UHGV virus genome: UHGV-1357953
Length of the DNA: 40,340 nt
Reading direction: 5' to 3' (one strand)
Origin: a virus
Under the pieces are notes generated by a model. It saw nothing but the letters and a program-made list of their open reading frames with translations. It had not been told where the DNA came from and searched no databases. Made by a program: the position numbers and the translations under genes. Shown piece after piece: positions 11,123 through 34,269 of the stretch (position 1 is its first letter; each line of letters starts with the position of its first letter).

Positions 11123-13261
11123 TCATAAAATAGATTTCGTCTTTGTAACAATAACATCTACAAAATCGCCTGCAGATATAGCTGATGGTACTGTATCTGC
11201 AAGAGTAATCTTTCCTGAAGAGATGCTTTGCACATCTAATAATTTATTTTCAATCCCATCCGTATATACCAATTTGATATCACTGAGTGGAGGGTAATAA
11301 GTGATTGTTCCTTGGTATACATATATTTCACTACCTGAAATCGATTTCACTACATACCTGCCCCTTACAAGATTAATTTTGAGTTCAGATAAATCGGTTT
11401 TATAACAGGTAATTCCTGAACCAATGTTAGCCATACTAATATCAGTATCACTATAATAAGTAAGTGCTTTCCCTTGTTTTAAAGTAAAAGTATTTTTACT
11501 TTTCCTTGGTAAGGATGTGCTATTTTTGTAATATCTACCAGTAAAGCATAGCCATGAAAATGCAGTATTCACTACATTACCACCAGAATACACAGCTAAA
11601 CGAATTGCACTAACTGGAACCCCTTCATTATTAATCCTGATCTTAATGGAAGAAATATTAACAGCAGTGACATACCTATGGTTGGCAGAATCCCATTGCA
11701 TAGAAGAAGTTATGGCTTCTGTTTGTGAGGTTATGACATTCCCATCTCTATCTAATGCATACAGGTAAATGCGAAACGATGCCGTATCTGCTGAGAATGT
11801 AAACATATCACCATTTCTTACTGGTACATCTCCAGATTCCCATAACAACCCAAAATTCCGCATAAAAGCAAACTTAGAAGAAACCAGGTGACGGATATTA
11901 TATAAACCATCAACATCTGTTTGATATGCTAATGCACCAACTTCTCCATTGTTAGCACTGGATATAAATGGGGTGTTAGCATTTAAAGAAAACAATGTTA
12001 CTTCATCGGATATATTTTCCTGAATATGAAATACTGCATTCCCCTTGCCATTATCAGTTACCTCGACATAAGTGTAAGGCGATGGATTGTATGGCTCATT
12101 TGTATACGCAGGAGATGAAAGCCATGTAGCTTCAATTGAGTTATTCCACGTATATTCACCAAAGTTAATTATCAACTGTTGGTTAGTTGGGGATGATGGA
12201 TATCGTTCAAAACGAAACCCGTAGAAGTAATTGTTATCACCTCTTTGAATATCAATTTTACCTGCCCCCTCCATAGTTCCACCATAAAACTTATTGTGGT
12301 TATGATGATATGGATTATCAGCGAAAATGATATTATTCGTACGATTCAGATAAAAATAGTTTTCATTTATCCATCCTTTCTCAACTCCAAGAAAATGAAT
12401 TGTATCGACCTTTTTCAGGTTAAAGGTTGAGTATGCTATTGAATAATCCGTCGATGCCACCGAAGCATTATAATTTGCATATAACTGTAAGTAGTCGCAA
12501 CGCTCAATGTTTATATGCTGCCCTTTTGCCCCGATAATACGAATATCCGGTGTCGTTTCAGATGAAATACCAGAATTTCTGATAATCGTTCCGAAGTTTT
12601 GTCTTGGGTTGTTAGGGTTTGATGCATTCCCGCCAAGCAATACCCCTATTCCTGAGTGGGATATGGTAAAAACAGCATTGGTCATTTCGAGGCTGACATT
12701 ACGAAGATTTAATGTCGCCGTAATAATAAAATTACCTTCCGCTCGTAATGTTCTGGATGATTCTCGTGCATATTCTGCAGCCAAGATCAATGCAGATGTA
12801 TCATCTGTTATACCATCGCCTTTTGCCCCCCACCCTCTTACATCACAATCGTCCCTCCACCGAGATATCTGCAATTCAGGATATTTTTTAGCTCCATCCG
12901 GGTCTTCTAATTGCTGCCGTAGTTGATCAGGGTCATACTTCAGCACATTTGGAAAATAGAACTGCTGCGCACCACATGCATCATAAACAGCCATAGAATG
13001 GCCTTGCACAGTTACGAATTTGGCAATCTGTCCGTTATATACTGGATACCCAGCGGCATTGATGACGATTGGCTGTGCAACAGGAACGTGAGAACCATCT
13101 TCGTTCTCAACATAGACCTGAATCTGGTTATCAGGATTTACCGGGTCAGTGTCAATTTTACCGATATAAATTTTGCCATTAGCTACGGCTTTAAAAGAAC
13201 GCGCCATAGTGAAGAGTTGCGAAGGCATGCTCACTACAACATTGGCTGTAATGTCTGTCAT
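11123..13261 (-). CDS. Tailspike protein (712 aa): P22-type head-binding N-terminal domain, divergent receptor-binding body
   Basis: First ~110 residues ([42 protein letters not shown]) match P22 tailspike as recalled; remainder not recognised. Confidence 0.9.
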
Positions 13262-13336
13262 TTAATTTGCTCCAGATACAAGGAATCGCCGCAGCATGGC
13301 TACGGCTGGTATTTGTTGCATACCGAAACGGTACGA

Positions 13337-13365
13337 TTGTTGATTTGTACAGTAGGTTTTACGAT
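13337..13365 (+). promoter_or_regulatory. Candidate mnt promoter: -35 TTGTTG, 17-bp spacer, -10 TACGAT
   Basis: Hexamers upstream of the Mnt-like gene in the divergent tailspike/mnt region. Confidence 0.3.
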
Positions 13366-13393
13366 GCCATTCCACCCATTTGGTGAGGCATTG

Positions 13394-13651
13394 ATGATGT
13401 ACAGCAAATACGATGAGGCGCAGTTCCACTTGAGGCTTACGCACGAGTTGCACGCCAAGATTAAGCAACGTGCAAAAATGAATAACAGGTCTATCAATTC
13501 CGAAATTGTGGCTACGATGGAAGAATCGCTCTCCAAACCATCACCTGTAAGCGGGTATCGTGATGAAGAAGAGAGGCTGGCCTCATTAATCTCGGAACGA
13601 GTAAAAGAAGTTGCGGCTGAAATTCTAAGGAAAGAAAAAACCCGCGATTAA
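13394..13651 (+). CDS. mnt: Mnt-like ribbon-helix-helix repressor (85 aa)
   Basis: FHLRLTHELHAKIKQRAKMNNRSINSEIVATMEESLSKPSPVSGYRDEEERLA aligns with P22 Mnt as recalled; the listed 242-aa ORF is an upstream extension. Confidence 0.7.
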   Translation: MMYSKYDEAQFHLRLTHELHAKIKQRAKMNNRSINSEIVATMEESLSKPSPVSGYRDEEERLASLISERVKEVAAEILRKEKTRD

Positions 13652-13668
13652 GCGGGTTTAGTTTTCAT
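13636..13668. terminator. Bidirectional intrinsic terminator between convergent mnt-like and antirepressor genes
   Basis: aacccgc/gcgggtt hairpin flanked by an A-run upstream and a T-run downstream. Confidence 0.55.
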
Positions 13669-13677
13669 TATAAAATG

Positions 13678-14406
13678 TTACGCCACATTTGAGCCATGTA
13701 GTAGGTGTTGTAGTGCTTTAACGCCTTCAGAATTGTAACGGAACGCCTCTACCTGTTTGCTGGAATGCGCCGATTTATCCAGGAAGAACTTCCCGTACTG
13801 CTCAGTTTTGAGGTTGTTTGCGTTAGCAATGCGACCAATCTTGTTGGCCGTTACTCCAAGCTGCTCTGCAACCTCCCCTGCTGAGTAGTAATGCTCTTCT
13901 ATTGCCGGAAGAGGTATTGCATTAAAACCAACGAGCGGGTTGATTATACTTGCTGCCGCTGTCTGCTTTGCCTCAGGCGCAAGATTTGGCATCAGATCGA
14001 ACAGATTGGTAACAGCTTCAACCGTCATTTTCAATGTTCGCGCTTGACGATACTCAACAAGTCCACTCGCTGATTTACCGCTTTTAATGTGCGCTTCTTG
14101 CATACTTTCAAGTTGGTCTACCAGTGAGCGGCGAACGGCTTTTGACTCGCGAGCGGCAACTCGCAATGCTTGCTTGATTGACATCTCAATGATAACCATC
14201 GAAGTTTTGTTCGCTTTTTGCACTACACTTTTTGTGTAGTGCTCTCCATCCAATTCATCTTCAATTTTCTCGATGAATTTGTTATTACGAACCTCCGGCT
14301 CACCGCACTGTCTACGAGCCTGATTTACCATCTCAAGAAGGCGCTGGCTGTCAATGGTTTTATCCGTGACAACGGATCCGATGTTTGCTACATTCTTAAA
14401 AGTCAT
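13678..14406 (-). CDS. Antirepressor-like protein with KilAC-type C-terminal region (242 aa)
   Basis: ATG 14406 with AAGGA RBS; C-terminal ..AGEVAEQLGVTANKIGRIANANNLKTEQYGKFF resembles the KilAC pattern. Confidence 0.55.
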   Translation of the reverse strand: MTFKNVANIGSVVTDKTIDSQRLLEMVNQARRQCGEPEVRNNKFIEKIEDELDGEHYTKSVVQKANKTSMVIIEMSIKQALRVAARESKAVRRSLVDQLESMQEAHIKSGKSASGLVEYRQARTLKMTVEAVTNLFDLMPNLAPEAKQTAAASIINPLVGFNAIPLPAIEEHYYSAGEVAEQLGVTANKIGRIANANNLKTEQYGKFFLDKSAHSSKQVEAFRYNSEGVKALQHLLHGSNVA

Positions 14407-14444
14407 TAGGCATTCCTTATGTGGTAGTAAGGGTGTGACATAGG

Positions 14445-14476
14445 CCGCCAGCAGCACACTGGCGGTTTTCTTTTTG
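14445..14476 (+). terminator. Plus-strand intrinsic terminator inside a minus-strand operon; candidate 3' end of a sar-like antisense RNA
   Basis: ccgccag/ctggcgg stem then ttttctttttg; no plus-strand CDS feeds it. Confidence 0.45.
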
Positions 14477-14494
14477 CGCCGTCCGGCGCACCAA

Positions 14495-15121
14495 TCAATG
14501 AATCCATTCCTCGCCGCGCAGTTTTGCCAGCATTGGCTGAGCGTTCTTTACGACAAAATTGTTGGTATCAAGATTCTTCATTTCACGAAGAAGTGATTTC
14601 TTGGTTTCTTCTGACATATAGCGAGTCTCATATGCGATATCGTAAATCCTTCCTGAAAGCTCAGAACAAATTTGCTTCATTCCTGGGTAGATGTGTTTGC
14701 ACATTTGTTGACTCTTCTCCATCCACAATTGTAAGTAGCAGAGATTAACCAGTTCTTCGTCAGTAAACTGTTTTGCAATCGGTGAGCATTCTGCCTGCCG
14801 ATCCAAAATATCCAGCACCCAGCGGCGGAACTCTTTGGCTACCGGAGTGCGAGCAAACATCGCGATTAGGTGGGCACCGCGTAGTGAGAAAACTCGCACT
14901 TTTTTGCGATAATTTCCTGAGGTACTCACTTCGAGTACCTGAGTCATTCCAGCGCTAAACTCATCGCTATACTTGTTATAAATCATTGTTACTGCACGAC
15001 TATTTGCGTATTTAAGTGCAGATGCAATATTAGATGATGTAAACCAAACACCATGCATATCACGGGTGGGCACCAACTCAACTCCGTGGAAGTTGTATTC
15101 TGATTTTGCTACAATATTCAT
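14495..15121 (-). CDS. ant: Antirepressor with Bro-N-like N-terminal domain (208 aa)
   Basis: NFHGVELVPTRDMHGVWFTSSNIASAL is Bro-N-like; ATG 15121 with AAGGA RBS. Confidence 0.6.
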   Translation of the reverse strand: MNIVAKSEYNFHGVELVPTRDMHGVWFTSSNIASALKYANSRAVTMIYNKYSDEFSAGMTQVLEVSTSGNYRKKVRVFSLRGAHLIAMFARTPVAKEFRRWVLDILDRQAECSPIAKQFTDEELVNLCYLQLWMEKSQQMCKHIYPGMKQICSELSGRIYDIAYETRYMSEETKKSLLREMKNLDTNNFVVKNAQPMLAKLRGEEWIH

Positions 15122-15194
15122 GTTAGTTTCCTTGCATACGGTTACTGACATAGAGGCCCGGTTTGTGTTCGCGCACTGCCGGGCTTCACTATTT

Positions 15195-15368
15195 TTATTG
15201 GATGACAACATCGCCCTTTGCCTCAAGTTTCATCAATAACTCCATTCGATAAGCTATCTCTGCCTGAATTGACCTATGGCATCTTTTTGCTGATTCGCGG
15301 ATATGTGAATCAACCTTTTCTGTAAAACGAACCTGACGCGGCTTGATGGAAGATATCTTTTCAGTCAT
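15195..15368 (-). CDS. Arc-like ribbon-helix-helix protein (57 aa), first gene of the antirepressor operon
   Basis: Hand-translated MTEKISSIKPRQVRFTEKVDSHIREASKRCHRSIQAEIAYRMELL; position equivalent to P22 arc. Confidence 0.45.
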   Translation of the reverse strand: MTEKISSIKPRQVRFTEKVDSHIRESAKRCHRSIQAEIAYRMELLMKLEAKGDVVIQ

Positions 15369-15467
15369 TATGCACTCCTGTTTTTAAAAAACTCATAATC
15401 TCACTTTTTGTAGTTTGATTATTCACTCACACTCAGTATGAGTCAATGAATTTTTTATGGTGAACTA

Positions 15468-16109
15468 ATGAATTTTGACGATCAATTCCCATCAAGAGTA
15501 TCTCTGGCAAGACAGTCCAGGGGTATGACGCAGGCGCAGTTGTCAAAATTAGCTGGTGTTGTTCAACGTCAAATAGCTGCATACGAGGGTGGTGAGGCTA
15601 AACCACGGCTTCGGGTATTGCAGGCATTAGCCAACGCATTAGGTACTACGGCTGAGTGGTTAGCTCTAGGTGAAGGTCAGGGTCCGGGAACAAAAAACGT
15701 CATGCCTGACGTTCTGGTAAAGCAAATACCAATCCTCAAACTAGATGAAGTTATGCATTACCTAAACACAGGTGAACATTCATCGTCTAGATTTCATCCG
15801 GCAATATACAATGTTGGTGACTCTGCATTTGCATTGACTATTGAAGGTGAAGCTATGACTACAAGTTCAGGTATTAGTTTTCCCAGAGGATCGGTTGTCA
15901 CGTTCAGCCCTCTAGTAAAAGCTAAAAGCAAAGATTATGTAATAGCATCATTGGATAAAGAACAAATATTGAGCTTCAAACAGGTTTACATTGGTGAAAT
16001 AGAGACAAACCTAGTATCCCTAAACCCAATGTATCCTAATATTCTTGTTAGAAATGAAGATGTTAGTATTTTGGCAACCGCAGTTTACCTTGAAATCCCG
16101 TTGCTTTGA
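15468..16109 (+). CDS. Second CI/LexA-type repressor (HTH plus S24-like domain) with the catalytic Ser replaced by Ala (EGEAM)
   Basis: N-terminal HTH (MTQAQLSKLAGVVQRQIAAYEGG); C-terminal S24-like fold; gct at 15850..15852 encodes Ala where the G-(D/N)-S-M nucleophile is expected. Confidence 0.75.
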   Translation: MNFDDQFPSRVSLARQSRGMTQAQLSKLAGVVQRQIAAYEGGEAKPRLRVLQALANALGTTAEWLALGEGQGPGTKNVMPDVLVKQIPILKLDEVMHYLNTGEHSSSRFHPAIYNVGDSAFALTIEGEAMTTSSGISFPRGSVVTFSPLVKAKSKDYVIASLDKEQILSFKQVYIGEIETNLVSLNPMYPNILVRNEDVSILATAVYLEIPLL

Positions 16110-16169
16110 TATCCTTTAGGAAGCGACACATTATCATCTGGTATCCTGCGCAAAACTAAGGAGGTTGGT

Positions 16170-16499
16170 GTGCTTGAATGGTTTCTGTTGGCTGCATTAG
16201 TCGTTTCTGGTTTGGTGTATGAGTATCGAATGCACTCTCTAACAAAAAAAATAGGAATTCTAGAAAACGAATATTGTGCTCTCAAATCCTCACTGGAACG
16301 TGAGCAAGGAGACTTAAAAATCTCTCTGTCTAGCATTGAGAGTTCTATAGAGAGCCTAGAGGATAAGGTTGATCGTATAAAGAATGAGGATATTCATGAT
16401 ATTAAGGACGACATATCCTTCTTAAAATCTTGGTTGAAAAATGTTGGTAAAATTGCCACATCAACACGAGATAAGCTCAATCCATCCATGGATGACTAA
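16170..16499 (+). CDS. Membrane-anchored coiled-coil protein (109 aa), GTG start
   Basis: TAAGGAGG RBS 5 nt before GTG; N-terminal TM helix then heptad-like repeats. Confidence 0.45.
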   Translation: MLEWFLLAALVVSGLVYEYRMHSLTKKIGILENEYCALKSSLEREQGDLKISLSSIESSIESLEDKVDRIKNEDIHDIKDDISFLKSWLKNVGKIATSTRDKLNPSMDD

Positions 16500-18659
16500 T
16501 TACTCCTGTGCCATTCCGCTTAGCGATGCCACAATTCCAGCCCTTGCTAAACGCTGGAACTCTTCGTTTCCTAGTGCCTCGCGTATTGCTTTTACGGCGG
16601 CCTTATTTGCCATAAATCTGCGTTCAGCCGCCGCTAATGCTTCTTTACTTCCGCCAGCTCTTACTGCTTTCGTGGCTTCCCGAACTGCTTTCTCTATCGC
16701 ATATCGACCGCTACGCGTGGTGGCAATTTTAGATACAGCGCCTTTTAACCCAGCGCCAACTAAAGCACCTGCGGCAGCGCCTGCAATGCCTCCTCCAGCG
16801 CCACCAACAATGGCACCTGATGTTGAATTGGCAATTGCATTTAACACTGTTGATGTGACGTTGGATAAACCAGCATCCAGATCGCGTAGTACATTGGCAG
16901 TTCTACCTGTTCTTTCAATATACTGCTGAGGTTTCACTGCTGCTCTTGCAAGAGTGCCATATGCATCAGCAATTCTTCCAAGCTCTGAGGAATATCGGCT
17001 AATGGCTTTTACATTTTGTGGAGTCAGTATCTCTGCGATATGGTTAATTCCTGCTGCATCAGCTTTGCCACCACGTACACCATGCGAGATAGCATCTTGC
17101 AACATTGATGATATAGCAGGAACACGCTCTGATTCTGGCAGCGCGCGGATCATAGAATGGAATCCAGCAGGACCATTAAGACCTTTAGCTGACGATGATT
17201 GAAGGGATTTTACTCCATTCGTAATCAGTGCATCTGTTGCCAAATCACGCCCGAAAACAGACTCTGCACTCTCTTGTGCTGATAACCTCGCTTTAGACAG
17301 ATCATTAGCTTTCTGCCAGTCATCAAGAAATCCGCCGTTTTCCGCCATTGTGCGCATATCATCAGTAATTGCCCGGCGTATTTCCCCTGCTCTCCTTGCC
17401 GCATTTGCCTCTCCGCTACGCTTATATTTTTGCTCCGCATCAGCAAATTTCGCTCTCCATGCTTTCATGCCATCAAATGTTACTCCACCTTGATTGTTTG
17501 CCTGAACAAACTGTTTCATTTCAGGAGTAAGCGGTATGCCAGCAGATCGCTCTGCCTGAATAACGGCATTACCATTTAGCATTCTTGCTTTTTGATTTGG
17601 CATTGTTGACCGCACGTCATCCCATGCCGCGCGCTCAGCATCCTTCATCTGATCAAGATTTTGAAGAATCCTTTGTTTTATAGCCGCACTTTTTTCTGAT
17701 GCCGTTCCAGATGCGGCCCCAAATTCATCAAGGTTTCGACTTAACTTTGATGATATTTCGTTAAATGCTGCCTGATGGGCATCCTGAACAATCCCTGGTG
17801 TTGATGCCAATGCGCCTTCGGCTTGTGCAATTCCACGACTTCCAGATCGCATTCCTGGTGTTAATGCGTTTATATCAATTCCAGCAGACTCAGCCGCTTT
17901 TGCTACATCTTCGGACACATTAGCGGCCTGACTGGCAATTGACTGACGCCCAGCACCTGACTTTGCCATCCTGGAAACATCATTAGCAGAATTCAGTGCT
18001 GCACCACCAAGAGCCTGTGAAACCCTTGGCGCAATAACGCGCCCGACACCTGAAAGAACGCCTTGAGCACCAATATTGATACCACCGTTAATGGCAGCAT
18101 TTTGTGCAAAATCACCCTCCTGATTTGCAGCATCAGCAAGAGAACCGGCAATCATGTTTCCTGCGGAACCGATGTCTCCTGCGAGCTTTGCTGGCGCTCC
18201 AGCAGCTTTTGCTGCTGTGCCAATTGGCAGGAGATACCCACCAATTGTTTCACCGGCTTGCGCGTAAGGGTCTGTCGGTCGATCGACTGGACGATAGACA
18301 TCATCCAAAACCTTGGGGCCACCAAGCCCCTGGCTGATTGCATTAATCAGACTTGCGCCACCCTGCAATACGTCAAATGGTATGTTTACCAGACCACGAC
18401 CAGCCTGCTCTGCAATTTGCCCTGCACTTTGACCACCAGTGAGCCAATCGCCAGCTTGTTGCATCAATGATGGTTCTTCTTTCTGCTGCTGAGGCGGAGG
18501 GTATGCTGCATAAAACTGATCTCTTGCTTCAGCCCATTTGTCACCAGCCTTAGGGGCAACAACCTCATCAAAATATTGCGCTTGAGCCTGTGCTTTCTGT
18601 TCTTCAGTTAACGCCTGATACTGTGGAGAAGCGATAACATCTTTCCATGCTTTAGCCAT
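16500..18659 (-). CDS. Ejection / internal virion protein, P22 gp16-like (719 aa)
   Basis: Gly/Ala-rich large protein last in the gp7-gp20-gp16 block. Confidence 0.7.
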
Positions 18660-20008
18660 TAATCACCCCATAAAGACGAGAAACCGGACTTATTGCTGTC
18701 GCTTCCTGATTTTCGCTCACTAACATATGTGTCATAACCTGATGAACTATATCCCATTGATTCAGCCTCCCTTGCTGCAACCTTTTGAAATACAGAATAT
18801 TGAGATCGTATTTCAGATAACTGTTTTCTGACGACCTCTTCAGGCTGTGTTATATCGAGTTTCGCGATCAGGTTTTCCAGTTTTTGGCCTTCAGCATTGG
18901 AGAGGCTACCCATACCTCGCATAGTCTGCACGTTCTGGACAAACGCACCCGACTTTAATTCTTCTATCGCATTACGGTTTGCAAGCCCTTCAGCACTTGT
19001 GAAGCCATCTATATTTCTTCCTTCGAAGCGACCAATACCTTCAAGCTCCTTCTTACCAAGCAAAGAATCAATTTTCTCTATCCCTCGCTCACCAGTAATC
19101 AACGCATTGTTGTAATTATTGTTGCCATCAAGCCATCTCTTAGCCTGAGACATTCTGGCTGACGTTGCAGCTTTACCGGTTAGCGGATCAATTCCCGTCG
19201 CTGCTATCTGTGAGTTAAGAGACAAAACATCCATATCCTGAAGTTGTCCTGCTCTTTCAAGGGCCGCCTGTGACTGCTTAAACACATACTTGTCGTGATT
19301 CAGTCTTGCCATTTGAGCCTTATAGGAAAGATCCTGCCCCCTAATAGCCCTCGCATTCGTCATGTCATTATTGCGAATGGTTTCGTTAATTCTTTGCTGC
19401 TCCTGCTGGCGACCAACCATCTTATCCTGATAATCCAGCATTTTATCCGGGCCAACAGCCCCTAGCGTCATAGTAGTCAGCATGTGTGATAGCTGCTCTG
19501 GATTCTGGATACCTGTCTGAATCATCCAGTCAGCATTAGCACCAACGCGATTTAACCTGTCCTTGTTGTCAGTAATGAATTTACTGTAGGCTTCCGGTCC
19601 CTGAGAAAGAGCGACGTTAGCCCTCATGGCTAAATCGCCCATATCGTTGCGTTGCTGATCATTAAGACCAGAAAACGCCTGTTGTGCCTGTGCAACAAAC
19701 GCTGGATTTTCCTGGGCAAACTTAAATAGTCCCGATGGATCACCAGAAGCCCATGCATCAGCGTGAACCTTATTGAACGCACTAATCGCTTTCTGTTGCT
19801 GTTCCTGATTGTAAATATCAGCAACTCCAGCCAGACCACGTAACGCGGTCAGACCAACGTTATTTGCACCTGAGCGAGCCAACTCATTGTTTTCGCGGAT
19901 CAGACCAAGCGTTGCGTTAATGTCGCTTGCCTTTGGCGCATTCTCATTTTGCGTACCGATGCCAGCCAGAAAACCACCAGAATTAATACCCTGTTGCCAC
20001 GTAGTCAT
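18659..20008 (-). CDS. Ejection protein, P22 gp20-like (449 aa)
   Basis: Synteny and size. Confidence 0.7.
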
Positions 20009-20018
20009 TGATTAACCC

Positions 20019-20714: not shown

Positions 20715-20716
20715 GG

Positions 20717-21172
20717 CTATCTCCCGTGATTCAGGAAGTCGATTAGTTCTTCGCGTGTGGCGCTGTAAAACGTCACGTCATCCACGCCTTTAAAGTATTT
20801 CTTGATGGTTCCTACACGATTAAGGCCAATCATTGCGCAGTACATCTGCCCGTGGCGGAATTTGCGTGCAGCGAACGATGTGACACACTGAACAGTGGTG
20901 TTAGTCAGAATGTATCGCCAGAACGCCAGCCCGATTTCCTTGCTGAATCCACGAACCTCTGGCAGGTACATGGCGTGGCAATCAAAGGTCAAAGGCTGAA
21001 TCTCCTGATAGTAAACAATGCCGCCGAACTGCCCGTGCACGTTCACCTCGAAGTAACGGCATTCAGGCTTGTAGTCGTATCCATCACCGTTGTTGCTCCC
21101 GGCAATAATGTCAGGGTGATTTCCGACTGCTTCGATCAGGTCGATGTTTCGCGTTTGGTTGAACTGAATCAT
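20717..21172 (-). CDS. P22 gp14-like head/tail accessory protein (151 aa)
   Basis: Synteny after the needle gene; ATG 21172 overlaps the needle stop. Confidence 0.6.
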   Translation of the reverse strand: MIQFNQTRNIDLIEAVGNHPDIIAGSNNGDGYDYKPECRYFEVNVHGQFGGIVYYQEIQPLTFDCHAMYLPEVRGFSKEIGLAFWRYILTNTTVQCVTSFAARKFRHGQMYCAMIGLNRVGTIKKYFKGVDDVTFYSATREELIDFLNHGR

Positions 21173-24364: not shown

Positions 24365-24376
24365 GCTTGTCTCCAG

Positions 24377-24400: not shown

Positions 24401-24408
24401 TCTGGTTA

Positions 24409-25704
24409 TCACGCAGTCTGGTTAGGCAGACCAACACCAATTGCCTCTGGTCGTACAGCACATGCTGAATACCACACAGCAATACGGCACTTACCAGACA
24501 GAGTGTTGATATCACCCTGCGTTGCGAAGATGCCGTTAACACCAATACCTGGAATGCTGAAGGAAGAAGTTTTCATGCCAGCAAACAGTTCATGGGTTAC
24601 CGGAATCGGCTGAGACAGCAGGCGGATTGAGTCATCAGCCCAGAACACGTTAGCGGTGGTTGTTGCCACGTTCAGAACGTTTACCGGAGTGGTATTAGCA
24701 AGAGAGGTGTTTACGTTAGCGTAAGCCTTCTCTTCTTTTGTCAGTGACGCGTCATCCAGCGCAATCGGCTTCGGCGTGATTTCGATGTGAGTACTATCGA
24801 TCACTCGGGTGATTGAGAAAGTCGCATCATCAGTCAGCACGTTCTTCGCCATCTGAGACAGGAATTTCACACCAGTGAAGCTGATTTTGTCGCCGCGCTT
24901 AAATCCGGTGGTGGAGGATACGGTCACCGTTGCAACACGGTTGTCGACGTTCTCCTTGTTACCATCGGTATCAATGGTGTATGCCTGCGGCTTAAACTTC
25001 TGCGCTCCAGACACAGTTACACCAGTAGCGGTTGACTTGGTAACTGCCGGAAGTTTCGGTGAGCGAAGAATTTCATCAAAGCCAGCAATCTGACGCTGAA
25101 TAGTACCGTTGCGATACGCTTCTTCAGGAACGCGACCGAAGATGTCACCATCTACCAGGTTGCGGCCTGCTTTGCGGTAATCGTCAGGATTCAGGAAGTA
25201 ACTGATGCCCATATCGCGGTTTAGCTCACGGGAGAACATCAGTCGCTCTGCATCAGACACAAAATCCCATCCAGACAGGCCAGTAGATGGACCAATTGCG
25301 CGGGTATCGTGAACAACAAGCGAGCCCATTTCAGTTGCCTGTTTGGCAATTGCTGACTCAATGTTATTCGCCAGTTTTTTGGCGGATGCCTGGATGCGGC
25401 GACGGTAAGAACGCTCATCACGCAGGTCATCTGCACGAAGCTCGAAGAAATCGTTATCCGGATCGCCCATGTTGCATTTCACGGAGAGTTCCAGAATCCC
25501 GGTTGCGTTGTCAGTTAAATCCCAGCCAGTCTGGGTTGGCGCTTCCTGCTCAACAGGCATCCACACGGTGTTGCTTGAACGCTGCATTGATTCTGCCGGA
25601 GGGGTGTATTTTGTCACTTTGGACGCCATTGGCGTCAGGTTCTGGGCGGTTTCGATGATTTCATCCAGAGCATATGTGACCAGTTGACCTTCATTTAATG
25701 CCAT
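24409..25704 (-). CDS. Major capsid (coat) protein, P22 gp5-like (431 aa)
   Basis: Extensive match to P22 coat as recalled ([40 protein letters not shown]..). Confidence 0.9.
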
Positions 25705-26615
25705 TATCGAATTCCTTTATTCAGTTGCGCCTTAAGCTTGCGGTACGTCTCTACATCCCCTTTGTTTGCTGCCGCTTCCATCTGCTTTTCAATCGCAGAG
25801 ATATTTGCAGCAACAGCGTGTCCCTGAATGGGTTCATCAGGTAACGGGGCTTCTGAAACAGGCTTTGCTCGAGGCTTGAGAGTTAAACGTTCTGACAGTC
25901 GAGTGAGTTCAATCAGCGCGGATTGCCCGTCCATCGCCAGCAACTGGCGTGTTTTCTCAGGATTAGCACCAAGGTGATACATGAGAGCAGCGGATTTCTC
26001 CGGGAAGAGGCGCATGATGTCGGCACCGACTGCTGGCGGCACCAGTTGCATGAATGCATCCTCTTTCTCCTGATAGTCAGGGATATTGAGCTTTTCCGCT
26101 GCGTCGTAGTGCTTACGGGCTGCCTCGACGTATTGCGCTGATTGCTGGGTGAACTCCTGAGTTTTGCGACCCTGCTCGGCGACAGCCTGGCTTCGTGCGT
26201 CCATAGCCTTGATCTGCCATTCACTGTTTGCCTGCTGGAAGGCAGCCAGTGCGCGGCTCTGGTCATAGTCGTACTTAGCCAGTGCATCTTCGGAAAGATA
26301 ATCGTTAGGGTCTGGTTGTTTTGGTAACTCAGGGTTCACCCGCAGGTGCTCCGGCAACTCTCCACGCTTAACCGCTTCCATCTGCTGCTCAAGCTCACGC
26401 TGGCGTTTGCGTTCGATGCGGCGACGGGCAAATTCAGCATTAGTTGCCGGGTCTTGTTTTGGTTTCTCATCGTCTTTCAGGACAATCTCAAAGCCTTCTT
26501 CCTGACCTGCACTGTCGTTGGCATTATCGACAACTAAGCCATCAGCAGATGCCGCTGCATGATTGCCGGGCAGGGTTAATTCTTCAGAAGCCTGAATGTC
26601 GGTGGTTTGGTCCAT
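25704..26615 (-). CDS. Scaffolding protein, P22 gp8-like (303 aa)
   Basis: Match to P22 gp8 as recalled (..[29 protein letters not shown].. and C-terminal ..[12 protein letters not shown]). Confidence 0.85.
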
Positions 26616-26628
26616 GGTTAACTCTCTC

Positions 26629-28794
26629 TTATTGAGGTGTCTCGGCTACTCCGCCGGAGGGGATTTGAACTTGACGCATAAGATTCGCGAAATCCATGCG
26701 TTGTGAATGAGTCTGGTCTGCATCTTTAAGAAGCAGCTCAGCGTTAGCACGAGCATCTTTGCTGCGCTGTTGCTGGAATTGACCTACGAGCTTGAGGTAC
26801 TCACGCAGTTCTGCCTGCTTGTCGAGGTCCATATTGTTGAAGATTTCTGCAATCTTCGCGGCGTTGAGTTGGTTTTGGGCTTCAACCTTGGCGGCTTCAA
26901 CCTGAATCTGCGCCTGTTGGTTCTCTGCCTTGAGCAATTCAGCCTGACCTTGCAGAAGGATACCCTGCGCCTGAATTTGCTCTGCTGATGGCTGCTGCGG
27001 CTGCTGTTGAGCCTGCTGTACCATCTCCATCTCTTCAGGTGTTTCTGGTTTCTTCAGCCCCATCATCACCAGTTGCTTGTTCGCGTACTCTCGCATCATC
27101 TCGACGCCTTTACCGTCAAGCAGCGTGAAGTATTGCAGCATCAGCATCTGGAACTCTGGAGTACCTTGCGGAACCTTTGTTAGCAACTCCTGAATCTCTG
27201 CGCGGTTCTGTTCCTTCATGCTCTGGAAGGATGGTCCAACTCCTATATAGCACTCGTAGCGACCGCGAATGTCGTTGAGTGTGACCACATTACCGGACTG
27301 GTAATCGACAACTTGCGCGTAGAGTTGAACGTCTTTCTCGCTTCCATCTTCAAGTGTCAGCGTTACATGACGAGGGATGTCATAAATATCATTGACCATT
27401 GAGGCATAAATCTCGCCATCACGCCGCATTGCGGTAGCCAGGTTATCCTGAAACACGTATGTCTCAAGGTCTGACCGCATGTTCAGTTGATTGACGGTAT
27501 CGAAAGAGACCTGAGAGTTTGCTGCCTGTGCATCCACGCCAAGACTAGCCACCTCTTTCACTGCGTTGGTGGCAGCCTCAAGCATGTAAGCGTTGGCTTG
27601 CGGCACTTCAGGGTTTTCCATGTAGGAGATTGGACCAATCGGCAGGTCGTTACCGTTTTCATCAGTCCTGTTCTGGAGATAGTACGGATAGTCATCATTT
27701 CCACCGTACATGTATTCGTAGCCTTCGATTTGCTCAGGGAAGAAGGTCGGTTTCTTCTTCGGTGAACGACCAACAATATCGGCGTTGAATGACATGATCA
27801 TGTTACGAAGGCGTTGACCGTCTTTCGTCAGCCTTACCACTCCTTCGTAGCACTCCTTGTCACCAGCGAATGACCATTCGCCATACACTGGAACGATTGG
27901 AATATGCTCTCCTGCTATCTTCTCGCGGTCTTTCAGTATCTGTGTGCAGGTGATGATCGACTTATACACACGCCGACGCTTCACCTTGCGCTCTGCTACC
28001 TTAATGAATCCACGATTAGCCAGGTCGTCGATGACGTCTTTAATATCCTGCTGGTAATAGCTGACCGGCTCACCTGTCAGCGGGTCGCGGTAGATGAAGA
28101 CCTTCTCTTTCTTCTCTTCTATCTCGTAATACTCAGCGACGTAGACGACATCATTCGATACCCACGGAAACAGCCATGTGTCGTTCGGATTCTGGAAAGA
28201 TGGCAAGGTGTCCGGATCAATACCGTAATCCTCTGCGAACTCTTTCCAGCCATTGCGTGACAAGGCGTTAATCACCGTGCAGTGCTTAGCGTCGCTCTTA
28301 TCCATCTGCTTGCTGTTGGCGTCCCATATGACGTGTGAGCAGGCCTCATGGATTGGCAGGCGTCTGATTACCTGATTGTTGCTTGTTGGGTCGTTGTCTT
28401 CGTACTGTGTGACCAGACGCCATGCACCAACGCCGGACTCTATCTGCTCACGAACGCCAACGTTAACGGCAATCTTTGCCGTGTTATGGCGCATATCAGT
28501 ACGATACATCCCCATCAACACATCGGCTGCATCAGGATTAGCGCCGTCTTTGGGTCGGAAGAGAACGTCGATAGGGTTCCGGCGCATCTCTGCGACCAGT
28601 TTCCTGACCACTGGGCGAACAACATCGAATTGTCCGCGATATTGCAGGGTGGTGTAGTTTGATAGCCAGTCATCCCATTGCGACACTCGGCTAAAAAACA
28701 GGTCATTTGTCGCCTCGGTTCTGGCTTCATCGCTCGCCATCCAGTCTGCGTCAAACTTACACAGAATGGAATTGAGTCTGTTTTCGTCGGCCAT
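26629..28794 (-). CDS. Portal protein, P22 gp1-like (721 aa)
   Basis: Size and position between TerL and scaffold. Confidence 0.85.
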
Positions 28795-30294
28795 TTAAGT
28801 TCTCCGTGCGATGGGCCTGATTGGGGCTGGTATCTTTTTCTCTTTTGGTTTTTTGATGTCGCGCATCATTTTGGCGAAGCGGCGCATCATGTATGCATAG
28901 CGAACGGCTGAGAGAACGTCGTCGTTAAGCTTGACGATCTTCCCGTTTTCATCACGGTGATAGAGGCGGAACTCCTCAAAGAATGGCTCACAGGTGTTGA
29001 ATACTTTGAAGCGACCATCGAGCATCATGTCGCGCAATTCAGTGATGCCAGGCTCCACAGCATTACCGCCATCAGGCCATGTCGCATGCTCCTGCAACAT
29101 CATAAAACCAGCGTCTGCATACTGCCCTTTGAGCTGCTCACCGCCGCCCTTCTCATGCTGGTTTCCGTCATGAGGCCATGCGGTTGGCACTTTATGCGCC
29201 CATGATTTAACAGCTCCCCACGCCTGAACGGCTGTTTTTTCTTTCGCCTTCCACACGCGTGAAACGTAGATTGTGTCTGCGTCCTTATCCCACCAAAGCT
29301 GAACCTGCGCCTGTGGGTGATCCCATCCGAAATCCATCCCGCCAATTACGTAGAAGTGATCAGGACACTCGAACGGCTGACACTTAATCGTCTCTTCCGG
29401 TATCTGGAAGATTCGACCGCTACCCATCGTAGGAATACCGCGAGAACGCGCCTCTCTCTCATGCTCGGGATAGGATGCGATGATTTGCTCTTTCTGTTCG
29501 TCTGTGTAGTGCTCAGCGTCGTAGATGGTCATGTTGACCACTTTCTGCGACTTGCTGGGATTCTTCAGGAACTTGGTAACAACGTCAGACATCCCCATCA
29601 GCGGGGTAAACGTCAGAATTGAGAATTGCCCGTATTTGTTGGTACGGGTAAGACCTTCGCCATAAATGCTGTATGGTGGCTCTTCGTCAAACCACACGCC
29701 GTGGATTGTGTCACCCTGCCAGCGAGCGCGGCCTTGCGAGTATGGTTTGAAGTAGCAGATTGAAATGCCATCTTCAACGCCATCAGCCGTGTGATGCTTA
29801 ACCAGAAGATGATCAACAAGGTTCGGAAAGAAAGGAGACTTCTTCCAGCTAATGATGTCCTCTTTCGGTATAGAACCGTAGCCCGGTTCATCATTCTCTT
29901 CAATACGACCGCACAGGATGCGTTGAGTCGTTTTGGTTACCGTCTCGTTTGTCTCGCCACCAATCCAGAAGACAACAGGCTCATAGAAACGCTTACCTTT
30001 CCACTCCCCACCATATTTACCATCAGCAGGATAGCCTTTTGTGCCCGGATAACGCCCTGTAAGGTGAAACGCGACTTCAGCAGCACCAGTAAATGACTTA
30101 CCAAGCTGGTTACCAGCCATAAAACAGCGCTCTGGATAGTCATGCCCGGCGTCGATGAACTCACGCTGTTTGCTGTATGGCGTAAATTCATATAGCAGGT
30201 GTGTGTTCCGGTAGTTCTCTTCTTCTTCGAGTAGCTCGAGCAATTCGATTTGCTCTTCGTCGCTCAGGTTATCAAGAATCGCGTCCAGTTCCAC
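28795..30294 (-). CDS. Terminase large subunit, P22 gp2-like (499 aa), GTG start
   Basis: Size equals P22 gp2; ATPase and nuclease regions; overlaps TerS by 23 nt. Confidence 0.9.
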
Positions 30295-30760
30295 GGTTGA
30301 ATAGCTCCTTGATACGAGAGCGTCGCTTATCGCGATCTCCCTTATCAGGTGTCACGTCTTCAACTTGCGACTGCTCTTTGAGGCCCAAATCACGGGCGAT
30401 GATGTTAGCGTTGAGAAGGTCAGCGGCTGCGCCAGAGAATTTCTGGTCGTAGATGATGTCTTCCGCTCGTGATGTGACGTCAGAAAAACCTTCCATTGAC
30501 CGGAAGGTTCCCCATGTTTGCCTGGTGATATCAAGGAAGGTACACAATCCTGAAATAGTCATGGCTCGCATCTTAGGGACATTAGCCTTAATTATTTCTC
30601 CCTGATATGAAAATACCTTACCCTCCCATAGCGGGTTATCATCAGCCCACTCGAAGTATTCACAACAAGCTGCCCACAGCGCCTCAGGCGATTCGAATTT
30701 AGGATTTCGCCCATGACTACTGCGGGCCTCCCAAAATCGGTTGCCCTTTGGTGCTGCCAT
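30272..30760 (-). CDS. Terminase small subunit, P22 gp3-like (162 aa)
   Basis: [38 protein letters not shown].. and C-terminal ..[31 protein letters not shown] match P22 gp3 as recalled. Confidence 0.85.
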
Positions 30761-30795
30761 ATTCATCTCACTTAATCGTTATTTCAGGTTGAGCA

Positions 30796-31038
30796 TCATG
30801 CTCCGGTGGTGAACAGGTCTAACGCCTCCTTCGATTTACGCACCGCTTCGATTGTGCGGGTCGTGATATCTGAATTAGCGCCACCTGACTGGAAGTGAAT
30901 TTTGAATAGCTCAAGCTTCAGCTCGTCAGTGCCAATGAACTGAAATGCTTCTTCTGCGGCTGCGTTCTGGTTCATGACCAGTTTGTAAATCTCTAACTGG
31001 AATTTCTGTTCTTCAGTCATGGGAATAATCTCTGCCAT
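30796..31038 (-). CDS. Hypothetical protein (80 aa)
   Basis: ORF upstream of TerS. Confidence 0.45.
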   Translation of the reverse strand: MAEIIPMTEEQKFQLEIYKLVMNQNAAAEEAFQFIGTDELKLELFKIHFQSGGANSDITTRTIEAVRKSKEALDLFTTGA

Positions 31039-31177
31039 TGTTGGCTCCGTTTATCCGTTAAAAGGGATATCAGTTAAGTTATCCCGTGTAGGGTATAAGC
31101 CATTACCAAAGCCACTCTGTAGGGAATGGCTTTTGTGATGGCAATAAAAAAGGCCGCCTGAGCGACCTGTTAGTTGT

Positions 31178-31348: not shown

Positions 31349-31729
31349 CGCAACCTCTTCCACTTGTTTATCATCGATTCAGCGGATGTCTTTCCATCAG
31401 TCCGCCACCACAAAGAATCTTTTTTGCCATAAGGCTGGAGGTTCATCTTTCAGTGGCTGCCAGTGTTATTTCCCCACTTTCTGGCTTGGGTTGTTTCGCG
31501 GTACTGCCGTAACTGGTTGCCCAGAATAAATTCCGGTTTCATTATCAAGCCCACCCGTAGATAGGCTTTGTAATGAACTGGCTCTTATCTCAACGCAGCC
31601 CCTTACCGCGCGCCAGATGCTCAACTTCAAGCATCAGCAATGAGATGTTTAATCTGGATTCACTCCAGAAGTGATCACCCCCCTGTCTACAGAGCCAGAT
31701 GTGAAGGATGATGAGTAAAATTATCGCTA

Positions 31730-32197
31730 TCATCGAAGGCATTGCGTCCTGATGTATTCCTGAAGCGTTCTCAGTGCTGTTTGGTCGCGGATAATTCCGT
31801 CCCGGATATCGAGAACGTTTCGTCCAGCAACTGGAGAGAGTTCGACGGTGGCATCATTGCCCATGCCGGAGGCGCTGGAGGTTTCGGCTGAGGATGGCAT
31901 ATGGCATTTTCCTTTGACGAACACCCGACCACCATTATCAAGCTTGCGCCGAAGAGCATCATTTTCAGCTTTCGCATCAGCTAACTCCTTCGTGTATTTA
32001 GCATCAAGTGCATCAGCAGTACGCTGGCGCTGCTGCATGTCAGTAATGGTGGCAGTCGCCTGCTTCAGCTCACTGACTTTTTTATCGCGCTGCTCTTTGT
32101 AGGTCATGGCGTTATCACGGTAATGATTAACAGCCCATGACAGGCAGACGATGATGCAGATAACCAGAGCGGAGATAATCGCGGTGACTCTGCTCAT
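31730..32197 (-). CDS. Rz: Rz i-spanin (155 aa)
   Basis: N-terminal TM then coiled coil; closely matches lambda Rz as recalled. Confidence 0.85.
31771..31977 (-). CDS. Rz1: Rz1 o-spanin lipoprotein embedded in Rz in the +1 frame
   Basis: Lipobox LIMVVGCSS and Pro-rich [16 protein letters not shown], as in lambda Rz1. Confidence 0.7.
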
Positions 32198-32670
32198 ACC
32201 TCAATCTCTCTGACCGTTCCGCCCGCTTCTTTGAATTTTGCAATCAGGCTATCAGCCTTATGCTCGAACTGACCATAACCAGCGCCCGGAAGTGAAGCCC
32301 AGATATTGCTGCAACGGTCAATTGCCTGACGAATATCACCGCGATCAATCATCGGTAAAGCGCCACGTTCTTTAATCTGTTGCAGTGCCACAGCGTCCTG
32401 GCTTTTCGGAGAGAAGTCTTTCAGGCCAAGCTGCTTACAATAGGCATCCCACCAACGGGAAAGAAGCTGGTAACGCCCGGCGGCTGTTGATTTGAGTTTT
32501 GGGTTTAGCGTGACAAGTTTGCGAGGGTGATCGGAGTAATCAGTGAATAGCTCTCCTCCTACAATGACGTCATAACCATGATTTCTGGTTTTCTGTCGTC
32601 CGTTATCAGTTCCCTCTGACCACGCCAGCATATCGAGGAACGCCTTACGTTGATTATTGATTTCCACCAT
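32194..32670 (-). CDS. R: Endolysin, lambda R-type lytic transglycosylase (158 aa)
   Basis: Near-identical to lambda R as recalled ([53 protein letters not shown]..). Confidence 0.95.
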
Positions 32671-32977
32671 CTTCTACTCCGGCTTTTTTAGCAGCGAAGC
32701 GTTTGATAAGCGAACCAATCGAGTCAGTACCGATGTAGCCGATGAACACGCTCGTTATATAAGCGAGATTGCTACTTAGTCCGGCGAAGTCGAGAAGGTC
32801 ACGAATGAACCAGGCGATAATGGCGCACATCGTTGCGTCGATTACTGTTTTTGTAAACGCACCGCCATTATATCTGCCGCGAAGGTACGCCATTGCAAAC
32901 GCAAGGATTGCCCCGATGCCTTGTTCCTTTGCCGCGAGAATGGCGGCTAACAGGTCATGTTTTTCTGGCATCTTCAT
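32654..32977 (-). CDS. S: Holin, lambda S-type with dual start MKM (107 aa)
   Basis: Near-identical to lambda S as recalled ([41 protein letters not shown]..). Confidence 0.95.
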
Positions 32978-33373
32978 GTCTTACCCCCAATAAGGGGATT
33001 TGCTCTATTTAATTAGGAATAAGGTCGATTACTGATAGAACAAATCCAGGCTACTGTGTTTAGTAATCAGATTTGTTCGTGACCGATATGCACGGGCAAA
33101 GCGGCATGAGGTTGTTAGCGCAGCCTCTTGCCACCCGCTTTCACGAAGGTCATGTGTAGAAGGCCGCAGCGTAACTATCACTGATGAATTCAGGATAGCC
33201 AGTGGCTACGGCTCAGTTTGGGTTGTGCTGTTGCTGGGCGGCGATGACGCCTGTACGCATTTGGTGATCCGGTTCTGCTTCCGGCATTCGCTTAATTCAG
33301 CACAACGGAAAGAGCACTCGGTGCATTTAAGACAAGCTCCATAAGGGAGAATGCTCTTACCTGTTACACAGAT

Positions 33374-33431
33374 ATAAAAAATCCCGAAACCGTTATGCAG
33401 GCTCTAACTATTGCCTGCGAACTGTTTCGGG
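33374..33431 (-). terminator. tR'-like terminator ending the 6S transcript
   Basis: cccgaaac..gtttcggg stem followed on the minus strand by attttttat; lambda-like. Confidence 0.55.
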
Positions 33432-33568
33432 ATTGCATTTTACAGACCTCTCAGCCTGCGATGGTTGGAGTTCCAGACGATACGTCGAAGTGACCAACTA
33501 GGCGGAATCGGTAGTAAGCGCCGCCTCTTTTCATCTCACTACCACAACGAGCGAATTAACCCATCGTT
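33376..33568 (-). ncRNA. Lambda-type 6S RNA (pR' to tR' short transcript) including the qut region
   Basis: ~190-nt interval between the pR'-like promoter and tR' that matches the lambda pR'-tR' region as recalled. Confidence 0.5.
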
Positions 33569-33574
33569 GGGTCA

Positions 33575-33603
33575 AATTTACCCAAGTTTATTCAAAAAGT
33601 CAA
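33575..33603 (-). promoter_or_regulatory. Late promoter pR': -35 TTGACT, 17-bp spacer, -10 TAAATT
   Basis: Hexamers and spacing as in lambda pR'; directly downstream of Q. Confidence 0.6.
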
Positions 33604-33645
33604 TATCATGCCGTTAATATGTTGCCATCCGTGGAAATCATGCTG

Positions 33646-34269
33646 CTAACGTGTGACCGCATTCAAAATGTTGTCTGCGATTGACTCTTCCTTGTGGCAT
33701 TGCACCACCAGAGCGTCATACAGCGGCTTAACAGTGCGTGACCAGGTGGGTTGGGTAAGGTTTGGGATTAGCATCGTTACAGCGCGATATGCGGCGCTTG
33801 CTGGCATCCTGGAATAGCCGACGCCTTTGCATCTTCCGCACTCTTTCTCAACAACTCTCCCCCACTGCTCTGTTTTTGCTATATCAACCGCACGACCTGT
33901 ACCGTGGCAATCTCTGCATCTTGCGCCCGGCGTCGCGGCACTACGGCAATAATCCGCATAAGCGAATGTTGCGAGCACTTGCAGTACCTTTGCCTTAGTA
34001 TTTCCTTCAAGCTTTGCCACACCACGGTATTTCCCCGATACCTTGTGTGCAAATTGCATCAGATAGTTGATAGCCTTTTGTTTGTCGTTCTGGCTGAGTT
34101 CGTGCTTACCGCAGAATGCAGCCATACCGAATCCGGCTTGTGATTGCGCCATCCCCATAGCAGCCATCACATCAGTACCGGAAAGAGAGTCAGAAGCCGT
34201 AGCCCGTGGTGAGTCGCTCATCATTGGGCTTTTTGGCGAATGAAATTTAGCTACGCTTTCGAGTCTCAT
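33646..34269 (-). CDS. Q: Late antiterminator Q (207 aa)
   Basis: Near-identical to lambda Q as recalled (MRLESVAKFHSPKSPMMSDSPRATASDSLSGTDVMAAMGMAQSQAGFGMAAFCGKHELSQNDKQKAINYLMQFAHKVSGKYRG..). Confidence 0.95.
   Translation of the reverse strand: MRLESVAKFHSPKSPMMSDSPRATASDSLSGTDVMAAMGMAQSQAGFGMAAFCGKHELSQNDKQKAINYLMQFAHKVSGKYRGVAKLEGNTKAKVLQVLATFAYADYCRSAATPGARCRDCHGTGRAVDIAKTEQWGRVVEKECGRCKGVGYSRMPASAAYRAVTMLIPNLTQPTWSRTVKPLYDALVVQCHKEESIADNILNAVTR

Follow-up and report, generated by a model that had tools for sequence, protein, structure and literature searches.

A P22-like virion module and lambda-type late control in one lambdoid genome: module boundaries in UHGV-1357953

How many junctions does a phage late operon contain when its virion genes resemble those of P22 and its late control genes those of lambda, and where do they lie? 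This question is raised by UHGV-1357953, a virus genome of 40,340 nucleotides (nt; hereafter the window, meaning the whole stretch that we analysed). Its open reading frames (ORFs) and composition describe a genome of about 40 kb with a long minus-strand operon running from about 34269 to 11123 and early genes on the plus strand between 500 and 8800. An initial annotation had read it as a P22-like virion module combined with lambda-like lysis and late control and a lambda-like C-terminal domain of the repressor CI, with one junction between the end of the spanin gene Rz (31730) and two small ORFs that precede TerS. When the BLAST comparison that it had proposed was run against lambda, P22, HK620, Sf6 and CUS-3, together with Pfam searches, the general mosaic was borne out but the placement of the junction was not. 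The window is a complete, apparently intact genome of a temperate Escherichia coli phage of the P22-like Lederbergvirus group. In its true form it is very probably a 40,233-bp circle, the genome of a lambdoid podovirus that recombination built up over evolution out of the gene pool shared by lambdoid phages.

Modules were compared with fetched references (the five phages named above, APC_JM3.2, Kapi1, JEP4, Gally, Dewey and the prophage of E. coli W46) by local blastn and tblastn, by a 250-bp donor map, and by Pfam and PHROG profile searches. In a megablast search of 50,697 phage records, 559 matched, and the best matches, classified as Lederbergvirus, were the E. coli phages APC_JM3.2, IME10, HZ41, Dewey, Louie and HK620; Salmonella phages of the P22 group matched at about 82%, and 5199 of 5426 complete E. 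coli genomes match parts of the region. Coverage of the window by any single reference stays within 50%, and lambda aligns to just 11% of it in blastn. The P22 gene families are present in P22 order (portal, scaffold, coat, gp4, gp10, the gp26 needle, gp14, gp7/gp20/gp16 and the P22-type head-binding domain of the tailspike), an order that is collinear with P22, HK620, Sf6 and CUS-3, and PF16510, PF09306, PF11651, PF11650, PF11134, PF16532, PF11039, PF25688, PF16928 and PF09008 all match far above cut-off. The late genes are all intact, each in its expected Pfam family. The regulatory layout is lambdoid, with cI and cro divergent, an early-left operon (ea10, cIII and the kil region), the order cII-O-P-nin-Q, a Q-type late operon that opens with the lysis genes, and an integrase gene; nin genes and Q were detected by blastn and tblastn, and cII, O and P are intact once a flipped segment, described below, is corrected.

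Lambda-type late control and its end within Rz

From Q to the middle of Rz, positions 31950-34279 are collinear with lambda 43875-46213 at 95.2% nt identity, and in the phage records the Q and lysis region matches lambda and lambda derivatives at 95.3%. As the initial annotation had proposed, Q, S, R and the DNA between Q and S are lambda-like (Table 1). The Q-to-S alignment hardly departs from lambda across pR′, the pause/qut region, the 6S leader, tR′, the sdi stem and the dual-start ATGAAGATG of S, the sole exception being about 45 nt directly after tR′, which are substituted. The promoter has the form TTGACT-17-TAAATT, with its −35 element at 33603-33598 and its −10 element at 33580-33575, and a promoter scan picks the same site; the tR′ hairpin lies at about 33374-33434. 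The stem-loop upstream of the S start is conserved with lambda, and S and R correspond to a class I holin with dual start and to a transglycosylase endolysin. Given Q together with its cognate pR′, qut/pause region, 6S leader and tR′, late control is assigned to the lambda type (Q-lambda/qut-lambda), and antitermination is predicted. Q would bind qut within pR′ and make RNA polymerase resistant to termination, so that transcripts would pass tR′ and internal terminators (for example, that at 31151-31168) on the way from 33567 to the tailspike gene at 11123. The Q proteins of P22, ε34 and related prophages share 99% identity with lambda Q, and qut does not differ between ε34 and lambda (PMC2629481).

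The lambda tract ends inside Rz. In a windowed nt comparison, Rz shares 25-30 of every 30 positions with lambda until about its nt 240 and 10-20 of 30 thereafter, while HK620 and Kapi1 hold 27-30 of 30; the breakpoint falls at about 31953, roughly 25 nt past the Rz1 ATG (31977). The description of Rz/Rz1 as a lambda-like pair thus fails beyond the first 82 or so codons of Rz. Over their whole length, Rz and Rz1 are 61% and 43% identical to lambda at the amino acid (aa) level and 90-96% identical to HK620 and Kapi1 (Rz1 alone, 94-96%), so that the spanin alleles are not those of lambda, although both proteins share their Pfam families with it. The C-terminal half of Rz and Rz1 interact in the periplasm. 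Because lambda identity collapses near the start of Rz1 while identity with HK620 and Kapi1 holds, these interacting partners form one non-lambda unit and are inherited together. In the HK620 GenBank record (2001), too, the label lambda-like is given to Q, S and R, whereas Rz is entered as "similar to Rz protein of Bacteriophage PS119", not lambda.

A further contribution of lambda type is the C-terminal domain of CI, where the initial annotation was right; the gene itself lies at 527-1228, outside the 11123-34269 range which that annotation had assigned to the mosaic. Residues 98-233 are identical to lambda CI at 133 of 136 positions, as against 18 of 95 for residues 1-97, and in blastn the 3′ part of cI (818-1222) corresponds to lambda 37637-37233 at 94.1%. 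The Ala-Gly context of the cleavage site (VQAGMF) is the same as in lambda, and the S24 match is strong (PF00717, E=1e-28). The window thus has the autocleavage and cooperativity domain of lambda CI but not its operator-binding domain, and the N-terminal helix-turn-helix domain is predicted to have a non-lambda immunity specificity. Translation of CI probably begins at an ATG within the ORF, at M15 or M17. The hybrid is an already known allele: the whole of CI is 100% identical in Dewey, vB_EcoP-683R2, vB_EcoP-720R6 and phi458, and about 97% identical in Nil2 and many Stx phages. A similar case is the ε34 repressor, whose C-terminal domain is about 80% identical to those of lambda and HK97 and whose N-terminal domain is divergent (PMC2629481).

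The interval between Rz and TerS

The initial annotation had supposed that lambda-type and P22-type DNA meet at a single junction, past the end of Rz and before the small ORFs, with 31364-31729 as a gene-free recombination scar. Lambda homology, however, stops 220 nt upstream, within Rz, and P22-type sequence begins only at 30793, where blastn identity with P22 changes sharply from 95% to 78%. What lies between, from 31953 down to 30794, is a stretch common to P22-like phages, with 95-100% identity to HK620, Sf6, CUS-3 and Kapi1 and in part to P22. Nor is the supposed scar free of genes, as it holds a conserved ORF (phrog_11822, E=8.6e-38) that is 92-100% identical at the aa level in HK620, APC_JM3.2, Kapi1, Sf6 and CUS-3, as well as a conserved block of about 141 nt that is not debris.

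Only the 41 nt between these two elements, which we call slot A, fit the description of a scar. The slot is empty where relatives hold 0.6-1 kb of varied accessory genes, and this counts in favour of the scar reading: HK620 has 1042 bp here (hkbK and hkbL), APC_JM3.2 805 bp (Rha) and Kapi1 590 bp, and the contents found among relatives include Rha, KilA-N with hkbL, P22 ORF201, a GIY-YIG or HNH nuclease and anti-CRISPR genes. An imperfect CATYACAAA repeat brackets the Kapi1 insert, as would fit gain or loss through recombination at short homology. The slot is likewise empty in SEN22 and Sf6.

The conserved block (31385-31525) is 93-99% identical in 163 phage records. P22, HK620, Sf6 and CUS-3 are among them, as are the siphoviruses HK544, HK140 and mEpX1, and ES18 matches in part; the block always lies between the lysis and packaging genes, in podovirus and siphovirus lambdoids. 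The records of Sf6 and CUS-3 annotate "boundary sequences". The predicted RNA fold of the block is not significant (z = −0.52), and the block has no Rfam match at gathering thresholds and no conserved ORF, a 31-codon ORF starting at 31541 being truncated by an early stop in Sf6. It is conceivable, but we consider it doubtful, that it is more than a passive recombination linker, that is, an uncharacterised cis element of the late operon or a docking sequence that promotes the gain and loss of morons.

On the other side of the block is a second variable slot, B, with a small ORF that, among the fetched references, was found only in Gally, where it is unannotated. A terminator scan found an intrinsic-terminator-like hairpin 3′ of it, at 31168-31151 (AGGTCGC-TCAG-GCGGCCT followed by a T-run). 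Together with this hairpin, the ORF is set into the late operon with hkbM on one side and the conserved block on the other, and it is a classic moron. The gene hkbM (DUF2560) is common to all P22-like phages, and the P22-type block follows it. There are therefore at least four boundaries between Rz and TerS instead of one, and the single-junction account is very unlikely.

Table 1. Features of the window and the comparisons on which their assignments rest (aa, amino acid identity; nt, nucleotide identity)
Feature	Position	Strand	Basis or remark
cro	245-457	-	
cI repressor	527-1228	+	PF01381 + PF00717; S24 C-terminal domain at nt ~818-1225
ea10 patch	2683-3177		lambda 97% nt (blastn)
b-region/ea fragments, three short patches	between 6896 and 8796 (6896-7470, 8533-8796)		lambda 89-96% nt
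Integrase	8979-10157		
Tailspike	11123-13261	-	P22-type head-binding domain (residues 1 to ~113) fused to non-P22 receptor-binding domain; PF09008, E=1e-66; phrog_18162
Ant moron (immI-equivalent) region	13394-16499	mixed	Pfam and PHROG matches
Mnt homologue	13394-13651	+	45% aa to P22 Mnt
Second antirepressor-like gene	13678-14457	-	phrog_1726
Antirepressor, Bro-N/P22_AR_C	14495-15226	-	
Small ORF	15195-15368	-	
CI/C2-like helix-turn-helix (HTH) + S24 repressor (second repressor)	15468-16109	+	
hkcB-like gene	16170-16499	+	
Ejection protein gp16	16500-18659	-	CUS-3/HK620 type
Ejection protein gp20	18659-20008	-	CUS-3/HK620 type
Ejection protein gp7	20019-20714	-	CUS-3/HK620 type
gp14	20717-21175	-	89% aa to P22
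Needle gp26, 317 aa, Sf6-type knob	21172-22125	-	PF16532, E=1e-105
gp10	22125-23543	-	93% aa to P22, 93-99% in all references; PF11134
gp4	23543-24043	-	58% aa to P22; PF11650
ORF69-position gene, (Glu-Pro)n repeat protein	24021-24364	-	interrupted by 10-N gap 24149-24158
Coat	24409-25704	-	P22-type block
Scaffold	25704-26615	-	P22-type block
Portal	26629-28794	-	P22-type block
TerL	28795-30294	-	P22-type block
TerS	30272-30766	-	P22-type block
hkbM / P22 ORF80 homologue (DUF2560)	30796-31038	-	98-100% aa in P22, HK620, Sf6, CUS-3, Kapi1, APC_JM3.2; PF10834
Slot B moron, small ORF of 53-61 aa	31151-31363	-	53 aa from the probable start at 31339; phrog_5425 match from residue 9 on (E=6e-40)
Non-coding boundary sequence of ~125-141 nt, conserved, with a variable slot on either side	31385-31525	-	unannotated
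Empty accessory-gene slot A, ~41 nt	31526-31566	-	flanking alignments
Conserved small ORF, 47-50 aa, hydrophobic N-terminus	31590-31742	-	Sf6 gene 65 homologue; overlaps Rz stop codon
i-spanin Rz, hybrid	31730-32197	-	codons 1 to ~82 lambda-like, C-terminal half HK620/Kapi1 allele; PF03245
o-spanin lipoprotein Rz1, within Rz in +1 frame	31771-31977	-	HK620/Kapi1 allele; PF06085; lipobox VVGC read from sequence
Endolysin R, lambda type	32194-32670	-	98% aa to lambda R; no match in P22
Holin/antiholin S, dual-start Met-Lys-Met motif, lambda type	32654-32977	-	99% aa to lambda S; PF05106; ATGAAGATG conserved
pR′ + qut/pause region + 6S leader RNA + tR′ hairpin	33374-33603	-	alignment to lambda 44495-45200
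Late antiterminator Q, lambda type	33646-34269	-	100% aa to lambda Q; 96% to P22 gp23; PF03589
ninE/F patch	35823-36160		lambda 95% nt

Units of the virion module and its neighbours

The block from TerS to coat (PF16677, PF03237/PF17289, PF16510, PF09306 and PF11651) is about 77.9% identical to P22 at the nt level and 96-98% identical to E. coli phages and prophages. At the aa level, identity with P22 is 82% for TerS, 92% for TerL, 77% for the portal, 85% for the scaffold and 73% for the coat, and that with APC_JM3.2 is 98-100% throughout, TerS alone being 82%. The corresponding genes of the Sf6, HK620, CUS-3 and Kapi1 types give either no match or 26-34% aa. Procapsid-assembly clusters are reportedly divided into P22, Sf6 and CUS-3 subtypes in the scheme of Casjens and Thuman-Commike from 2011, and, judging by its sequence, the present cluster belongs to the P22 subtype and not to the Sf6 or CUS-3 subtype.

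Two observations set the terminase genes apart. Over the 5′ half of TerS (30500-30766), nt identity is only 75-79% to every reference, even to those that reach 96-98% across the remainder of the block, and the N-terminal half encoded there may represent a pac-recognition allele of its own. In TerL, on the other hand, the 5′ half (29500-30250) is 92-97% identical to P22 itself, as against 70-76% for the rest of the block.

Within the P22-like module, the donor map separates at least seven units. For TerS to coat (24168-30793), the closest sequences are of the APC_JM3.2, W46 and Dewey type at 96-98% nt; gp4 and gp10 (21896-24142) are broadly shared among the references; the shaft and knob of the needle (about 21250-22000) are closest to JEP4 and Gally, whose needles are 95-96% identical in nt sequence; and gp14, gp7, gp20 and gp16 (16378-21174; PF11039, PF25688 and PF16928) are closest to CUS-3, W46 and HK620. 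Among the ejection proteins, gp7 is 93% identical to P22 at the aa level, and gp20 and gp16 are 96-98% and 99% identical to CUS-3, P22 gp20 and gp16 matching only partly. The head-binding domain of the tailspike (12924-13305) is shared by all references; the N-terminus, and only that part of the protein, is 76% identical to P22 and 90-91% to HK620 and CUS-3 in aa sequence, and the receptor domain (11123-12750) is 100% identical in nt sequence to the W46 prophage. The close match to P22 that had been noted for TerS, scaffold, coat, gp4, the needle and the tailspike N-terminus therefore stands at the aa identities given here and in Table 1, with the exception of the needle, which resembles P22 only N-terminally (54%) and carries an Sf6-type knob.

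Upstream of the tailspike gene, the ant moron DNA (13306-16139) has JEP4 as its sole match among the references, and its proteins are 76-100% identical at the aa level to those of JEP4 genes 14-19. The region has neither arc nor sieA, and it carries instead a gene for a CI/C2-like S24 repressor that points away from a small ORF and from both antirepressor-like genes. This arrangement suggests, as far as the predicted domains go, that the antirepressors are under SOS-cleavable control. A hypervariable "ant moron" before the tailspike gene and interchangeable lysis cassettes have been described for P22-like phages (PMC2629481).

Outside the late operon, sequence from the lambda pool is also scattered through the early operons, as patches of 89-97% nt identity in ea10, the b-region/ea genes and ninE/F. 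Short direct repeats (CGCACATGAAGCCGCACAAACAACCGCACATGAT-like units) lie within the O gene at 39158-39284, a position that agrees with HK620 and Sf6, in both of which an iteron-type replication origin is annotated within O. An Rfam search of the whole window at gathering thresholds gave no match, and a tRNA scan of the window found none, although Sf6 and Kapi1 do carry tRNAs downstream of Q.

Assembly, relatives and the origin of the mosaic

A mosaic of this kind might also be produced in the computer, as an assembly chimera of lambda-like and P22-like phage reads from one sample, and the window does contain two assembly artefacts. First, the reverse complement of 1-55 equals 38178-38232 and that of 40286-40340 equals 38126-38180, that is, there are exact 55-nt inverted overlaps at both ends of a segment. 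Flipping 38181-40340 and trimming the overlaps gives the 40,233-bp circle with an intact cII and an intact DnaB-like P (458 aa, 99% to Kapi1). Because the flip restores both genes and closes the circle, the assembly has placed this segment, which contains cII, a small ORF, O and the 5′ portion of P, the wrong way round, and the overlaps are the signature of a k=55 assembly graph; a real inversion was rejected on the same evidence. Second, a hexanucleotide repeat between coat and gp4 (24091-24219; (GGCTCT)n on the plus strand, with (GAGCCA)n as the sequence that encodes (Glu-Pro)n) encodes at least 24 Glu-Pro repeats and is broken by 10 Ns (24149-24158) that shift the frame. The resulting 289-aa ORF (23543-24412) is spurious and was rejected as a gene, being the (Glu-Pro)n ORF fused to gp4 across the gap. 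APC_JM3.2 annotates a repeat_region at the same position, and the length of the repeat probably varies between phages.

Neither artefact, however, touches a module junction, as one lies among the replication genes and the other within a tandem repeat. All junctions within 11123-34269 are crossed collinearly, at 94-98%, by the finished genomes of HK620, Kapi1, APC_JM3.2, IME10 and Dewey and by the W46 prophage. For instance, Kapi1 is collinear across the breakpoint in Rz (31567-33218, 97%), as is HK620 (31567-33100, 94.5%), and APC_JM3.2 is continuous over 24168-31117 (96.1%). Because independent finished genomes cross every junction, the mosaic is biological and not an artefact, and we consider a chimera highly improbable.

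In fact, the combination is already known. IME10 (JF974339), APC_JM3.2 (MG197996), Dewey (PQ850600) and the W46 prophage (NZ_CP163115) all join a P22-type TerS-coat block to lambda-type Q, S and R (99-100% aa), and Dewey adds the identical hybrid CI. Their TerS-coat block matches the window at 96-98% nt, and at 98-100% aa in TerL, portal, scaffold and coat. The W46 prophage, which adjoins tRNA-Arg and yfdC, has the identical tailspike receptor domain and covers 80% of the 11123-34269 range at 96.9%. These four differ from phage to phage in the early-left region, replication genes, ant moron, needle, gp16/gp20 and integrase. All of them have only 75-79% nt identity to the window in the N-terminal half of TerS, and in all of them slot A, empty in the window, is filled (with Rha in APC_JM3.2 and W46, and with HNH, KilA-like and hkbL-like genes in Dewey).

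More distant relatives share some modules and differ in others. HK620 (AF335538; Clark et al. 2001) has the lambdoid order, lambda-type Q, pR′, S and R, the same non-lambda Rz/Rz1 allele (90-94% aa), orf50, hkbM, hkcB, gp10, gp14, gp7, gp20 and the tailspike head-binding domain. Its terminase, portal, scaffold and coat, in contrast, are of the Sf6 type (27-32% aa to the window where they match at all), slot A is filled with hkbK/hkbL, there is an insertion separating pR′ from S, cI and the tailspike receptor domain are different ones, and the needle is P22-like, without a knob. P22 (AF217253), 34% of the window aligning to it at 83% identity, shares the order and families of the virion genes, the TerS-coat block (73-92% aa), gp23 (Q, 96%, with lambda specificity), the hkbM/ORF80 homologue and the 141-nt block. 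In contrast, its endolysin gp19 has no match to R, its Rz is another one, its needle is knobless, and it has an mnt-arc-ant immI with sieA, an endorhamnosidase tailspike and c2 immunity; its gtrABC conversion cassette and int have no match in the window. Lambda (J02459) shares the tract from Q to the N-terminal half of Rz, the C-terminal domain of CI, ea10 and short nin and b-region patches, whereas its head and tail genes, cos terminase and immunity are without counterpart and its Rz C-terminus and Rz1 differ. The records of HK620, Sf6 and CUS-3 annotate the same features. The architecture is thus a known one, a lambdoid mosaic of the sort seen since HK620 (2001) and shared with many deposited phages and prophages, and nothing in it is novel.

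That the window is a recent direct hybrid of lambda itself and P22 itself, like the laboratory lambda-P22 hybrids, finds some encouragement in the near-identity of Q, S and R with lambda but deserves almost no credence, given a lambda tract of 95.2% instead of about 100% nt identity, a P22-type block far closer to E. coli phages and prophages than to P22, remaining modules of CUS-3, HK620, Sf6, JEP4 and W46 types, and relatives that imply E. coli and not Salmonella as the host. On these identities, the modules do not derive from lambda or P22 themselves.

Assembly over evolution from the shared lambdoid pool remains the reading that we prefer. Recombination would have taken place at gene and domain boundaries and at short conserved linker sequences, and the exchanged units would be self-contained functional sets. 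Q would travel with its own pR′, qut, 6S and tR′, S with R as a holin-endolysin pair, and the C-terminal half of Rz with the embedded Rz1, its binding partner. Likewise, the N-terminal domain of CI would move with cro and the operators, its C-terminal domain for RecA cleavage and oligomerisation being separately exchangeable; TerS, TerL, portal, scaffold and coat would form one P22-type block, and the needle knob, the ejection proteins and the tailspike receptor domain would be independent units. Breakpoints at the boundaries of co-functioning units are what is expected if selection filters recombinants. Three points weigh against this reading: the viability of this genome is presumed, the flipped 2.1-kb segment with its 55-nt overlaps and the N gap in the repeat speak of an imperfect assembly, and the recombination mechanisms are read only from the positions of the breakpoints.

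As for how such a phage would function, the steps can be proposed from the sequence and from established lambdoid biology. CI would repress through its non-lambda N-terminal domain and would lose its activity when RecA stimulates the lambda-type C-terminal domain to cleave the protein. Once late transcription is under way, S, R, Rz and Rz1 would lyse the cell, and the P22-type terminase would package DNA by the headful into a scaffold-assembled T=7 procapsid, the particle being closed by gp4, gp10 and the needle. The tailspike would set the O-antigen specificity.

For those who will annotate this genome, the contig needs two fixes beforehand, namely the flipped 38181-40340 segment and the unresolved (Glu-Pro)n repeat with its N gap. 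Beyond correct annotation the significance of the finding is small, as module exchange among lambdoid phages is textbook biology and this combination is already in GenBank.

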